Positions 13,584-62,930 of a stretch of 64,000 nucleotides of DNA are shown piece after piece (the first letter of the stretch is position 1; every line of letters begins with the position of its first letter). The position numbers were made by a program, and so were the translations under genes. The stretch lies in the NCBI GenBank assembly GCA_964016885.1, contig OZ024740.1, forward strand, positions 374,666,001 to 374,730,000, written 5' to 3'. This stretch comes from Eledone cirrhosa. Lineage: Eukaryota. The notes below the pieces were generated by a model. The model was not told the DNA's origin, made no database searches, and was given only the letters and a program-made list of their open reading frames with translations.

Positions 13584-13628
13584 ACGCGACAAGGCCTTGT
13601 TTCTGCATTTGTTATGCTTATCAAGGCT
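13584..13628 (-). ncRNA. Hammerhead motif, U3-A8 variant
   Basis: Reverse complement: agcc|ttgataa|gcat aacaa atgc a|gaaac aaggcctt gtc|gcgt; palindromic stem III acaaggccttgt; stem I imperfect. Confidence 0.65.
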
Positions 13629-13767
13629 AACTACTCCCTCCCGTCTACTGAGATCGCTGATGTTATATTCTTATAGGCAACCGCTCTGTATAATCAGTTC
13701 TTTATTATTTACTAGAATGCAATAAGAATATAACATCAGCGATCTCAGTAGACGGGAGGGAGTAGTT

Positions 13768-13814
13768 AGCCCTGATAAGCATAAAAAACATGTAGAAACA
13801 AGGCCTTGTCGGCT
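13768..13814 (+). ncRNA. Hammerhead motif (core ctgataa, C3/A8 mismatch in this copy)
   Basis: agcc|ctgataa|gcat...atgta|gaaac aaggcctt gtc|ggct; stem I agcc/ggct, GUC site. Confidence 0.7.
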
Positions 13815-14114
13815 TTACCTCCCCCTGTTTGCTGAGATTAAAGTAAGTGAGTCTGTCACTACTCTAAAACAATAGCATACGGTCTTCAAAATGCTTTTAA
13901 TTAAGCATAAAGTGTATTGAAAAATACATTATATATACATTCATATATATATGGCTATTTCAGAGGTTCAATTCTAATATATATATATATATACGGCTTA
14001 TTTTAAAAATATCCAATACTAAAGCTACAACTCCATTATCCGGGAGCTTCCAACAGTAATAGTTGCATTATTTAAGCGTATGTCAATATTTATTTATAAA
14101 ACTGATCTATATTA

Positions 14115-14180
14115 TATTTCATCTGATGGAAGCACACCATAATTTAACTTGGTGTCCTTGAAATATGTATAATGAAATAA
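14115..14180 (+). ncRNA. Type I hammerhead motif (A9G deviation)
   Basis: tatttcat|ctgatgg|aag c acacc...ggtgt c ctt|gaaat atgt ata|atgaaata; perfect 8-bp stem I. Confidence 0.75.
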
Positions 14181-14556
14181 ATATCGTTTTATAAATATAG
14201 TTTCCATTTGTTAATATCGTATATATATATATATATATATATATATATATATATATATATATATATATATATATATATATATTCTAATTTATTTGAATTA
14301 TAGAGCCCTCTGCCGCTCATCTCGAATTTTGTTTATCGTGAACTCGTGCGCCGATTTTTCGATACTCGATTATTCTACTATATATATATATATATATATA
14401 TATATATATATATATATGTAACCAAAAGTTAAACAAGGTTTATTGATTAATCAATGCATATAGTTTTACAATAGATTAGAACGACTCAACAAGGAGGTTT
14501 TCTGGATTTATTAATATTAATTCAAAATATTAATAGACATTCATGTAATCAAAATA

Positions 14557-14624
14557 TACTTTATTATATATATTTCGGATGTACTCTGCTGGTTTCTTCA
14601 GTACGTCCTCATCAGATAAAATAC
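14557..14624 (-). ncRNA. Type I hammerhead ribozyme, intact core
   Basis: Reverse complement: tattttat|ctgatga|gga c gtact...agtac a tcc|gaaat atat ata|ataaagta. Its 3' half recurs inverted at 14643-14722. Confidence 0.85.
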
Positions 14625-58660: not shown

Positions 58661-58837
58661 TATATAAATATATATATATATATATATATATATATATAAA
58701 TATATATATATATATATATATATATATATTTATATATATATATATAAATATATAATATGAAGACTAAAATCCAAAGAGCCCTCGATGACGATAAATATAT
58801 ATCAAATATATAAGAACAGTAGAGCAAATATTTATTA

Positions 58838-59563
58838 AAATAACAGTGTAAAGTTTCAGAAAAGAATCACAGCTTTCACCCTTAACGGGATCTTCTGAAA
58901 CTAAAAATATCAATATGTGAACGCAGAAGTAAATATTTCGAAAAAAGTTGCAACCGAAGGAAGACAGGAAAACGATACTTTGGTTCGTGGCAACGTTCCC
59001 TGGCAAAGAACGGTAAAAAACGAAAATAATACCTTATAAATAGGAGCGGACTCAACGAATCACCTTATAGAATATTAGTCTACGACTTCATTTGTACCAT
59101 AAACTTGGTTTGTCTTAGCGTGTAATTGTTTTCACCGCTCCTAATTATGACGTATTATTTTCGTTGTTTTCCTTATGCATAGGGCGGTGAATTTGGCAGT
59201 ATCTGTAGAGGGTCGGACGCCATGCTTTGCAGCAAAGAATTACGGCCCTTTATGGTCTGAGTTCAAATCCGGCCGAGGTTAACTTTGCCTTTCTTCGTTA
59301 CGGGGTCGATAAAATAAAGTATCATTAATACACTGGGATAATTGCTGGCATTGTGCCAAAAATAGTAACAATTATTTTCGTTTTTTTCCGTTCTTTGCTA
59401 GGGAACGTTTCCAGGAACCAAAGTATCGTCTTCCTGACTTCCTTCGGTTGCAATATTTTTCAAAATAGTTACCTCTGCGTACACAGAGATATATTTTTAG
59501 TTTCAGAAGATCCCATTAAGGGTGAAAGCAGCGATACTTTGGTCAAACTATAATCTGTTATAT
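58838..59563. repeat. Fold-back element with its right arm interrupted by a SINE
   Basis: ctttcacccttaacgggatcttctgaaactaaaaatat (58873) vs atatttttagtttcagaagatcccattaagggtgaaag (59491). Confidence 0.8.
59180..59370 (+). mobile_element. tRNA-derived SINE, sense orientation, with probable TSD
   Basis: B-box gagttcaaatcc at ~59259; reverse complement of 3375-3560; attattttcgtt at ~59153 and ~59371. Confidence 0.88.
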
Positions 59564-59794
59564 TAATATATATATATACACACACACATATATATATATA
59601 TTTATATATATATATATATATATATATATATATATATATATATATATATATATATATATATATATATATATATATATATATATATGTATATATACACACA
59701 CACACACACACACACACACACATATATATATATATATATATATATATATATATATATATGTGTGTATATGTATGTGTGTGTGTGTGTGCATGTA

Positions 59795-60340
59795 TCTATA
59801 CATATACATACTACATGCGTATGTACACATATATGTATGTACGTATACATACTTATATTTAGGTATCAGCTTTACTAAGAGTGAGAAATGAAATTTCGTT
59901 TCATTCTTTTCCATTTATCGTTTTCGGTATACCCAGTCGACTAACTCACTCGATATGCAAATTAGGGTGCTCATCCGTTAATATGCTTAAGGAAAGTATA
60001 TACTTTCAGATGTTCAATCATCTGACAGAAAGGTATATGATGCTGACGATAGCTAATAAGCTTGAAACATCGTTTTCTGTGTCAATGTTGAAAGAAAGTC
60101 GACGATGGTTGCCTAGCACGGTACGGCGTAATTCGGGATGTTTGTTTACAAACAAACTGAACAATATAATAAATATTCGGTAAACCCATACGTACATATA
60201 TATACGTGTGCATGTATGTATATATATACATACTAATTTGCGTATGTACACATATATGTATGTACGTATACATACTTATATTTAGGTATCAGCCGTACTA
60301 AGAGTGAAAAATGAAATTTCGTTTCGTTCTTCTCCATATA
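59795..60340 (+). mobile_element. 1.3 tandem copies of a 423-bp unit containing an HHR-like core at 60040-60080
   Basis: aggtatcag at 59861 and 60284; ctgacga|t agct aata agct t|gaaac atc gtt; stem I poor. Confidence 0.65.
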
Positions 60341-60589
60341 TATATATATATATATATATATATATATATATATATATATATATATATATACACTCTGCAA
60401 TGAATTGAGTACCTTACTTACTGTGGTTACCTCCGATTCAACCCGGAATAACGTATATATATATATATATATATATATATATATATATATATATATATAT
60501 ATATATATATATATATATATATATATATATATATATATATATATATATATATATGTATATATATATATTTATGAAAAAGTATGACTCTT

Positions 60590-62930
60590 ATTCTATATAT
60601 AGGAAAAAGTATGACCCCGACCGCAGAGCTCAAGCCGTTTCGACGGCTATTTCTGGAATAAATTAGAACTTTTAGCCTGGCGAATAAATAGCCGAACTTT
60701 TCAAGGGGGTACTTCCTTATATGGGAAGATTGTGTTTGTCAAGAGGTTTGGTTAAAATTTGTTGTAAACACAAATAAGTCTATCATGGCATTTGGTGGGT
60801 GGTAGGGGTGGCTAAACTTGCCTGCGAGTGAAGCGGTCAAGCGTTGAAAGTGATATGTATACAGCAGAATCTAAGGATAGTGTGTGAAGTGAGGGAGGGA
60901 CTATAGAATAGGTAAATCGAAAGAGAGTAGGAGACAATAAAAGAAACTAGAAAGAAATAAAATAAAAAATAAAAGAATATATAAAATTAGATAGTGAGAA
61001 ATGAATAAAGTAATCACAATGCTATCTTACAATTACAGGTTAATAAGTTGAGAATATAAAACACTTATAGAAATTACAAAACAGATACAAACTTAAAGGG
61101 GTTTTTAACACATCTGCTATAAGTAATTAGTCAAACGTATTCGGCCAATTCTATCTTAAAATAACAGGGGTGGGGTAACTGATGCTACAAGGCCAGATGG
61201 GCTGCATCGGGGTAGGCGAAAGAGGAAAGCAGACGAGGAAGAAAACAGGGGTTGGAAGAAGTGATAGGATGAGGCACCAGTAATAAGTAGACAAAGAGCA
61301 AAAGAAAAGAGGTACATTTACCTATGTAAGCTGGGGTTTCCCCTAACTTATTCGGCAAGTGTGTTTGTGTGTGGGTGGGGTGGTGTGGGGTTATCAGCCA
61401 TTGTCTACCCACTCGGGTCGTTATAGGGTTTGAGGGCGAGGTAAGTCCTACGCAATATGTGTTGGCATGCAGTTATCAGTTCTTGTTTAGGAGTTGGTCC
61501 TTCGAAAACAGCATTTGTAATGTCTCCTCCGAGCATAAGTTACCCGGACGGCGTCCTCCTGTGTGAGAGTTAGCTCTGGACAGTAATCTCCAAGTGAGAT
61601 TGTAGGTTATATTGTTATCTTGGGGGTCCCAGATGTGGCCCGAAAGTGTAGTGGCATGTCGCCGGACCGGGTTTCGGAAAGTGTGTCGGTGTTAGTAGAG
61701 CCGGGTCTTGAAGTCACACGTGGTTAATCCTATATAAGCTTTGTTAGAGGTGTCCGTCTTCACGTTGCACTGGTAGATCACGTTACATTCTCGGCAGTTG
61801 TTGTTGAGGGGGCACGTGGATATATCAGGGCAGTTACACCTCCTGGTCGGCTCTCCAATGATGTCTAGGATATTTCTTCCATAGGGGTTGAGTTTTTTTT
61901 TGTTTGAGGAGACGAAGTTTGTACGAAGTTAGGTGTGGTGTTGTAGGAGAGTTTGATGGTATTTTTGTTGATTATGTTGTGGTAGCGTTGTTGTAGTGGG
62001 AATTGTGTTTTGAGGAGTCTCAAGAAGATTTTCCCGATAGGTGTTGCCACCTCGGCATTGTGGGGAGGATTGAACCATGTTACGTTGCGTGATACGCGGT
62101 GTCGCCTGCTGGTTCCGCTAAGGGAAGCTGGATAAAAGGATATTTCATCTCGGAACCCACTCCGCTTGAGGGCCTGGTTGTGATGAGTCGCGTGTTCGTC
62201 GAATATCTGCTCATTAGCGGACAAACGAGATATGCGGAGGGAGATGTTTTTAACCAGGTTATTGGTGATGATTCTAGGATGATTAGAGCGGCGGTGGATG
62301 TAGTGCAGGTTGTCGTTTGGTTTCCTGTATGGGGAGTACAGATCAGTTTCGAGGTTAGGATAACGTTATGGAAATTGACTCGGGTTAGGGACGTTTGTAG
62401 GTTTATTTTAAATCCCCAGTCCCGGAAGAAGTTGATTAGTTGTTTACGGACCCGGTCTCTACTACTGGGGTTGTACACTTTGAGGGTGAGGAGCCCATCA
62501 TCCCGGCACAATCCACTGCCGAATGCAGGAACCATTTCGGTGAGTTTAAATAGTAGGAATAATCCTTTAAGATCTGTGACCTCGGCGCAATCTGTTGCGC
62601 CCATGCTGAGGTCGAAGGGGGAGTCGGAAGCTCTCTTCATCCACTTGGAGTTGTGGAAAAATAGAACTGTCTTCCTGGCGTGGAGAATGATATTTCTTTC
62701 GTGGTCAGTGATGGGCGTGAGTGTTTTTACAAAGTCCAAAGCTACCGTAAGGAGCGATAAGGTAATAGATGCATAGTAACTCTCTATGTCAAACTGGATG
62801 AATTTTGTGTCTCGTTTGTCAACCATATTCCTGAACCTTGAGATTACTTCCTGGGTGCTGACCCATAAGCTAAGTCTCACGTTTTGCTTAACTTTTGGTT
62901 AAACTCGGTCTAGGAACTTTTTACTGATTC
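60590..62930 (-). mobile_element. 5'-truncated PLE of the YRDD/CxC lineage with 3' pLTR
   Basis: ORFs 62080..62880 (QFDIESYY, MGATDCAE, LCRDDGL) and 61865..62224. The GIY-YIG region at 61450-61850 is homologous to 37930-38350. Confidence 0.92.
60614..60710 (-). ncRNA. Hammerhead, U3-A8 variant with long stem II
   Basis: Reverse complement: cccc|ttgaaaa|g tt cggctattt...aaatagccg t c|gaaac ggc ttgagctct gcg gtc|gggg. Confidence 0.78.

Follow-up and report, generated by a model that had tools for sequence, protein, structure and literature searches.

Hammerhead ribozyme motifs in which the tertiary pair of the core, C3-G8, is replaced by U3-A8 recur in a stretch of the Eledone cirrhosa genome (GenBank assembly GCA_964016885.1, contig OZ024740.1, positions 374,666,001 to 374,730,000 of the forward strand). 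This stretch of 64,000 nt, termed the window, is microsatellite-rich with a GC content of 35%, and genome-wide searches refer to the 3.0-Gb assembly that contains it. A preliminary description of the window had listed ten U3-A8 sites and proposed a large population of such motifs, invisible to CUGANGA searches, in at least three contexts. In all ten sites (10/10), U3 and A8 are set in the frame of a type I hammerhead, and more than 30,000 U-A copies, summed over exact patterns, are present genome-wide, which bears out the proposed population. The three contexts are likewise confirmed as Penelope-like elements (PLEs) of YRDD type, the pseudo-long terminal repeats (pLTRs) of Neptune-type PLEs, and retrozyme-like units of 317-324 bp. 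The frame runs in the order stem I, UUGANAA, stem II, GAAA, palindromic stem III and UH, and the core YUGANRA, GAAA and UH are joined by three helices, as is characteristic of type I hammerheads. The features are as follows, with positions counted from the first letter of the window.

13405-13993, two retrozyme-like units of family B as an inverted pair, flanked on both sides by (TA)n runs
13584-13628, minus strand, U3-A8 hammerhead of family B, stem I damaged, U3 at 13624
13768-13814, plus strand, inverted partner copy of family B, C3·A8 as a single-copy change
19538-19573, plus strand, U3-A8 hammerhead of Neptune-type subfamily A1 (most abundant class), near-intact
31411-32494, plus strand, 314-bp tandem array of a family B homologue with canonical C3-G8, C3 at 31704, 32018 and 32332
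36464-36505, plus strand, U3-A8 hammerhead of subfamily A2, decayed copy with A9U
36762-43041, plus strand, Hydra-type (YRDD) PLE, partial tandem
36860-36953, minus strand, U3-A8 hammerhead in an inverted pLTR copy of the Hydra-type PLE, U3 at 36948
39516-39609, plus strand, U3-A8 hammerhead directly upstream of the Hydra-type open reading frame (ORF), U3 at 39521, predicted cut after C17 at 39604
43038-45927, minus strand, broken Neptune-type PLE of subfamily A3, 3' end matching the pLTR at 54204
53369-53414, minus strand, U3-A8 hammerhead of family B, stem II damaged, U3 at 53410
53728-53773, plus strand, U3-A8 hammerhead of family B, stem II and palindrome damaged
54202-54236, plus strand, U3-A8 hammerhead of Neptune-type subfamily A3, near-intact, 2-bp stem I
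54625-54764, inverted pair of subfamily A5 with U3-A8 and A13C, U3 at 54654 (minus) and 54735 (plus)
55003-56559, plus strand, 3' fragment of a young Neptune-type A4 element, the ORF's GIY-YIG end followed by a U3-A8 hammerhead at 56518-56559
60614-60709, minus strand, U3-A8 hammerhead of a second Hydra-type subfamily, U3 at 60704

For the minus strand, the preliminary description gave the lower end of each motif, in which U3 lies at 13624, 36948, 53410 and 60704. Three of the ten sites (19541, 54204 and 36948) are near-intact relative to their own families. Copy-specific damage is present at the other seven and includes, besides the lesions listed above for 13624, 36466, 53410 and 53732, a G10.1-A11.1 mismatch at 39521, a damaged palindrome at 56520 and a stem III mismatch at 60704. 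No hammerhead was found among 143 Rfam matches at E<=1 in the window, and the canonical-core motifs of the window were missed as well. A loose descriptor returned seven palindromic-stem-III matches in the window, four of them U-A, against 0.3 per shuffled window (20 shuffles). It recovered three of the ten sites at the correct core, and the case therefore rests on families rather than on single sites. The A5 inverted pair at 54625-54764 was absent from the preliminary list, as were two further decayed members of U-A families at 18770 and 63535, both on the minus strand.

Abundance of the core types

The ACCGGT stem-III class was counted by the exact pattern YTGANRA..GAAACCGGTH, with the reversed pattern as control. 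It comprises 23,901 matches genome-wide against 305 for the control; C-G accounts for 115, C-A for 249 and U-G for 201, and the remainder, about 23,336, is U-A. The C-G count is below its own reversed control (162). The comparison of U-A with mismatched cores that had been put forward as a check does not test function, because the copies inherit their core from a small number of master elements. The C-A matches were partly rejected as real mismatch ribozymes, three of the checked loci being coding-like and five lacking stem I. We also note that an abundant short repeat (L251-L255) fits the C-A pattern yet is without helix I. Beyond the ACCGGT class, the Hydra-type YRDD family gives 7,035 matches, family B gives 901, plus 942 in a second stem-III form, and a single canonical-core class gives 10,617.

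A spread sample of 99 stretches of 10 kb each (0.99 Mb, L093-L191) places these numbers in context. The strict descriptor finds 74 C-G, 7 U-A, 3 C-A, 2 U-G and no G-C cores there, and on shuffled sequence 0.4 U-A and no C-G, C-A or U-G, with 2.8 matches in total per shuffle. A rough homology census, with seeds drawn from the spread sample and the window, assigns 197 motifs to 144 canonical-family, 22 U-A-family, 25 U4A and 6 U4C members; the U4A seed was offset, such that its counts hold and its core read-out does not. Canonical cores outnumber U-A by ~6.5 to 1 (144 to 22), and C-G families keep their C-G core in 129 of 144 cases. In the window, 15 of 30 motifs belong to U-A families, as against 22 of 197 in the spread sample, and the window is therefore a local cluster. 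The earlier view that U3-A8 is common holds within the window; genome-wide, it is a minority and the canonical core is dominant. The 87 strict and 197 homology-level motifs of the spread sample extrapolate, roughly, to 260,000-600,000 per genome, which is higher than the ~120,000 hammerhead motifs reported for the axolotl (PMC7229834).

Elements that carry the motifs

The hammerheads at 36948, 39521 and 60704 are part of a YRDD family, and the sequence motifs of this family fit the description of the Hydra clade. DKT, CxxC and CxH are present in locus L045, which possesses an 801-codon open frame and a UUGAUAA motif with an identical inverted partner, and RWR and CxCX5C are found in the window ORFs at 39645 and 37626, both being altered in L045. 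The copies are flanked by (TA)n, with inverted 5' parts. The element at 36762-43041 is composed of an inverted pLTR, a truncated upstream copy, a pLTR with the hammerhead and a frameshifted ORF for reverse transcriptase (RT) and GIY-YIG endonuclease (EN), and the ORF remnant of the subfamily at 60704 is located at 61383-62931 on the minus strand. The YRDD ORF has no match in Pfam, and its RT/GIY-YIG assignment rests on motifs. An assignment of this family to Nematis was rejected, as the motifs matched the Hydra description. Both clade names, Hydra-type and Neptune-type, are putative and follow from motifs rather than from trees with named references.

C3 occurs in 1,716 of the 7,035 Hydra-type matches, and 98 of 100 among the C3 matches listed are C3·A8, the other two being cores of other families that abut truncated Hydra-type copies. 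A tighter pattern finds G8 in only 38 copies; C-G accounts for 10 of them and U·G for 28, with a U3·G8 subfamily of ~10 among the latter. In a tree of the DNA upstream of the motif (47 rows), a young U-A clade, which includes the element of the window, is situated inside a ladder of C3·A8 copies. A rooted tree of the ORF ends (36 of 46 rows, nine distant rows and one duplicate being left out) agrees and places the U-A clade within a C3·A8 grade, and approximately unbiased (AU) tests reject monophyly for U-A as well as for C3·A8 (p of 6e-8 and 1e-7). In 14 C3·A8 copies, the variants common to at least three copies are 10 synonymous and 2 replacement changes, compared with 44 and 111 among singletons (p=2.5e-4), and the mismatch masters were therefore coding and active. 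The ~1,700 C3·A8 copies constitute a coding grade under purifying selection that is ancestral to the young U3-A8 clade.

Between Hydra-type subfamilies, variation is seen in 1 of 29 structural columns as opposed to 11 of the 37 columns in loops (p=0.008; 95 copies), where flank columns, affected by truncation and microsatellites, and pattern-fixed columns were excluded. The nearest Hydra-type sister family has C3-G8 but carries U4A, and amounts to 17,477 matches genome-wide. U4A hammerhead frames with C3-G8 are also observed at 58897 (minus) and 59504 (plus); in L133 and L168, such frames lie downstream of a Hydra-type endonuclease. A U4C frame with a long helix II is present at 1810-1855 (plus), downstream of a Hydra-type ORF remnant, and has canonical U4 relatives. 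Hydra-type copies commonly end 20 or 103 nt beyond the predicted cut, and many short copies start ~17 nt before GAAA, inside loop II. In the motif at 39516-39609 and in the family to which it belongs, helices II and III have near-identical 3' strands, which permits a strand swap that buries GAAA in a hairpin. Conserved across subfamilies, this modelled hairpin is a possible built-in off switch.

We take subfamilies A1 to A5 to be Neptune-type, a name given partly on presumed sequence likeness. In the PLEs of 19541 (A1), 54204 (A3) and 56520 (A4), the hammerhead is downstream of the GIY-YIG domain, and the motif lies in pLTRs arranged in tandem or inverted, as in PLEs generally. The motif at 36466 (A2) has no linked ORF here and was grouped with A4 by sequence likeness alone. 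Pfam identifies RVT_1 and GIY-YIG in the A1 ORF and RVT_1 in the A4 ORF, the homologues having both domains; the 24 window ORFs gave no RT or GIY-YIG match in Pfam because the copies are fragmented. A1 and A4 possess the CX2-5CxxC linker and the CCHH endonuclease of the Neptune clade, motifs that Nematis has as well (PMC8557442).

A4 is very young. In its locus L292, a tandem, the motif UUGAAAA recurs in three identical copies at distances of 4.8 kb, together with two intact 777-codon RT-EN frames, and 27 of 150 scored matches to the A4 endonuclease sit in 777-codon frames. At L292:388-1668, the same locus contains a frame of 427 codons that lies upstream of the RT-EN frame, overlaps it and matches nothing in Pfam; one ORF is the usual number in descriptions of PLEs. 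A5, which was found via the inverted pair at 54654/54735, combines U3-A8 with A13C in 11,250 matches. C13 is present in 97 of 100 among the matches listed, and A13 in only 42 genome-wide. The ORFs of A5 reach 655 codons, and its sister subfamily, A3, has A13 in the motif.

Family B, to which 13624, 53410 and 53732 belong, is a non-coding unit. Tandem spacings of 317-324 bp at eight loci, with one hammerhead per unit, correspond to the layout of retrozymes that lack long terminal repeats (non-LTR retrozymes). C3 occurs in 12 of the 901 matches, none of which is C-G. Relatives with C3-G8 are the array at 31411-32494 in the window and 310-bp arrays elsewhere. Both sides of base pairs change in all three helices of family B while U3-A8 is kept; six pairs are changed on both sides, a result reached in 1 of 500 shuffles (12 hand-picked rows, some of them decayed), and the covarying variants make up entire subfamilies (449 and 942 copies). 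Compensatory helix changes are thus a feature of family B, and the Hydra-type stems are conserved rather than co-varying.

Further PLE sequences are present in the window. A YVDD family is found at 27735-30600 (minus) and 51526-52606 (plus), and has copies with canonical C3-G8 minimal hammerheads, for example at 27517 (minus). An inverted pair of another PLE 3' end is located at 56687-58746, with a GIY-YIG remnant at 57577-57840; no hammerhead was detected in this pair by the scans used.

Origin of the U3-A8 core

We consider it probable that a small number of master elements exchanged C3-G8 for U3-A8 in the type I motifs of PLE pLTRs and of a related retrozyme-like repeat, that the exchange likely had three or more independent origins, and that these masters were then copied tens of thousands of times with the core inherited. 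Inheritance from masters is argued by the single-mismatch cores, which make up only ~1% each of the ACCGGT class, and by the scarcity of C3 in family B. Independent origins are suggested by the two C3-G8 relatives of family B and by the C3-G8 core of the nearest Hydra-type sister family. The route would have been two transitions through a mismatched intermediate. That U3-A8 restores the tertiary pair by two transitions may explain why it is the natural alternative, rather than the G3-C8 swap, which gives the best rescue in vitro (PMC9901934). The lack of G3-C8 cores among the strict-descriptor matches of the spread sample agrees with a possible transition bias at the level of the masters. The resulting hammerhead would cleave slowly and as a dimer, trimming precursor RNA at the terminal repeats; PLE hammerheads have been described to cleave weakly, as dimers, and precursor trimming at terminal repeats has been proposed for them (PMC4209133). 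The covarying helices of family B and the conserved structural columns of the Hydra-type motif indicate that the fold is selected. The cutting rate, on the other hand, would likely be only weakly selected in the coding families, since the U-A clade nests in a C3·A8 grade and A5 was amplified with A13C and long ORFs.

Several observations weigh against this account. Stem I of the Neptune-type motifs is 2-3 bp, this genome yielded no Neptune-type sister with C3-G8, and the tree does not settle whether A1, A3, A4 and A5 are monophyletic. The base of the Hydra-type tree is likewise unresolved, so that C3·A8 could have arisen from C-G or from U-A, and a distant Hydra-type relative present as one copy (L165) reads U-A; U-A could therefore be old in this clade. 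In single-strand folding, the hammerhead is the lowest-energy fold in none of nine motifs, z-scores from such folding being uninformative for dimeric motifs, and the competing Hydra-type hairpin that buries GAAA reaches -25.3 kcal/mol compared with -20.6 for the hammerhead helices. In one hammerhead examined by pairwise mutagenesis, only the G3-C8 swap rescued activity, other single and double core mutants being low (PMC9901934). U3-A8 may therefore be nearly inactive in some contexts.

A rival reading, which we regard as doubtful, is that the motif of the coding families no longer cuts and persists either as a folded signal, serving for instance in binding or template choice by the element's own RT-endonuclease, or as a passenger. 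Whole families have been amplified with lesions at near-invariant positions while their stems are conserved (C3·A8 in ~1,700 copies, A13C in ~11,200, U4A in 17,477 and U3·G8 in ~10), and the common copy ends at 20 or 103 nt lie past the predicted cut. Craig et al. describe the role of the hammerhead in such elements as unclear, and clades without it proliferate (PMC8557442). With the same low likelihood, PLEs could reach thousands of copies although their hammerhead is catalytically dead, C3·A8, A13C and perhaps U4A keeping the fold without cutting. Ends past the cut are, however, equally expected from circular or tandem templates, and most core positions are fixed across divergent subfamilies, although the search patterns themselves account for part of this. 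In its youngest clade, the Hydra-type lineage has a Watson-Crick 3-8 pair once more, and a U4C variant of weak activity in vitro nonetheless sustains a viroid in vivo (PMC3088659).

Somewhat less plausible again is positive selection for slower cores, an idea also raised in the preliminary description, by which full-length element RNA would survive for translation and copying. This would explain why non-canonical cores arose repeatedly in coding families, some of them very large or young, and why the strands of the competing inactive Hydra-type hairpin are conserved across subfamilies; furthermore, U4C and A13C are not AT-ward changes. Against it, canonical-core families are more numerous overall (144/197, and the 10,617 matches of one class), and the observations are compatible with tolerance as well. 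AT mutational pressure, suggested in the preliminary description as a cause, in the form of biased mutation of individual dead copies, or chance matches in AT-rich DNA are very improbable in spite of the low GC content of the window, the two changes being transitions toward A/U and the decay at seven of the ten sites: pattern matches are ~80-fold above controls, single-mismatch cores are rare, whereas decay copy by copy would render them the most frequent class, U-A is present in intact young elements, and neighbouring C-G families remain C-G (129/144).

Comparison with known systems and significance

The U3-A8 core had been described beforehand as uncommon in nature, and it is already on record for PLE hammerheads. 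In Schistosoma mansoni, ~1,300 U3-A8 and ~2,000 canonical PLE hammerheads have been published (PMC4209133), and natural U3-A8 cores, as well as activity of the swap in vitro, have been reported (PMC3088659). The closest parallel is Cercyon of S. mansoni (Cervera and De la Pena 2014, PMC4209133), which shares type I motifs in pLTRs, a palindromic helix III, pairs in inverted orientation, a majority of truncated single copies and covariant U3-A8. The Drosophila virilis form in the same account resembles the Neptune-type motifs in its 2-bp helix I and short palindromic helix III. E. cirrhosa differs in copy number (>30,000 as opposed to ~1,300), in the involvement of three unrelated element families and in the presence of young intact elements, and its amplified C3·A8, A13C and U4A cores have no counterpart in that account in the parts covered.

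The Hydra clade (Craig et al. 2021, PMC8557442) shares with the YRDD family DKT, RW[K/R], the CxCX5C linker, an endonuclease lacking CCHH, CxxC and CxH near conserved E and N, and (TA)n targets. In contrast to the canonical hammerheads of that clade, U3-A8, C3·A8 and U4A or U4C cores are found here, helix II being long and helix III 6 bp, in an element of ~3.6 kb rather than under 3 kb. Similarly, GxKF, DKG, the CX4CxxC linker, a GIY-YIG domain with two internal cysteines and microsatellite targets are common to the Neptune clade (PMC8557442) and the Neptune-type elements. The latter differ in that U3-A8 spans subfamilies only 45-60% alike in the endonuclease region and that A4 has the extra upstream 427-codon frame. 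Family B corresponds to non-LTR retrozymes (PMC7229834; bioRxiv 10.64898/2026.07.22.740005) in its ~320-bp non-coding tandem units with one type I hammerhead each and a palindromic helix III, and is distinct in its U3-A8 core and in being known from DNA alone. U3-A8 covariation and U4C are both among the natural core variants of Perreault et al. 2011 (PMC3088659). Such variants are rare in that survey, whereas here single variants, including an unpaired 3-8, define families of 10^3 to 10^4 copies. No report of amplified C3·A8, A13C or U4A families was found in the literature searched, which excludes one supplement of PMC4209133 and Luense et al. 2017 (PMC5785218).

U3-A8 itself is thus a known variant and a minority genome-wide; what this genome adds is naturally amplified broken cores, whose RNA cleavage would likely be poor or absent. 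Of the hammerhead-like motifs in the spread sample, searches for canonical cores would overlook roughly one in four (53/197). The genome also provides a matched natural series, with C3-G8 and U3-A8 in homologous retrozyme units (the array at 31411-32494 serving as paired control), C3·A8 and U3-A8 along one PLE lineage, and A13 and C13 in sister Neptune-type families, in which the core base pair is seen to change via an amplified mismatch state. The amplified broken cores bear on whether PLEs need ribozyme cleavage. If spread with a dead hammerhead were true, the passage of a ribozyme through a mismatch valley to U3-A8 would be preserved in one genome, and the hammerhead of PLEs would act as a structural signal, its nuclease activity being dispensable.

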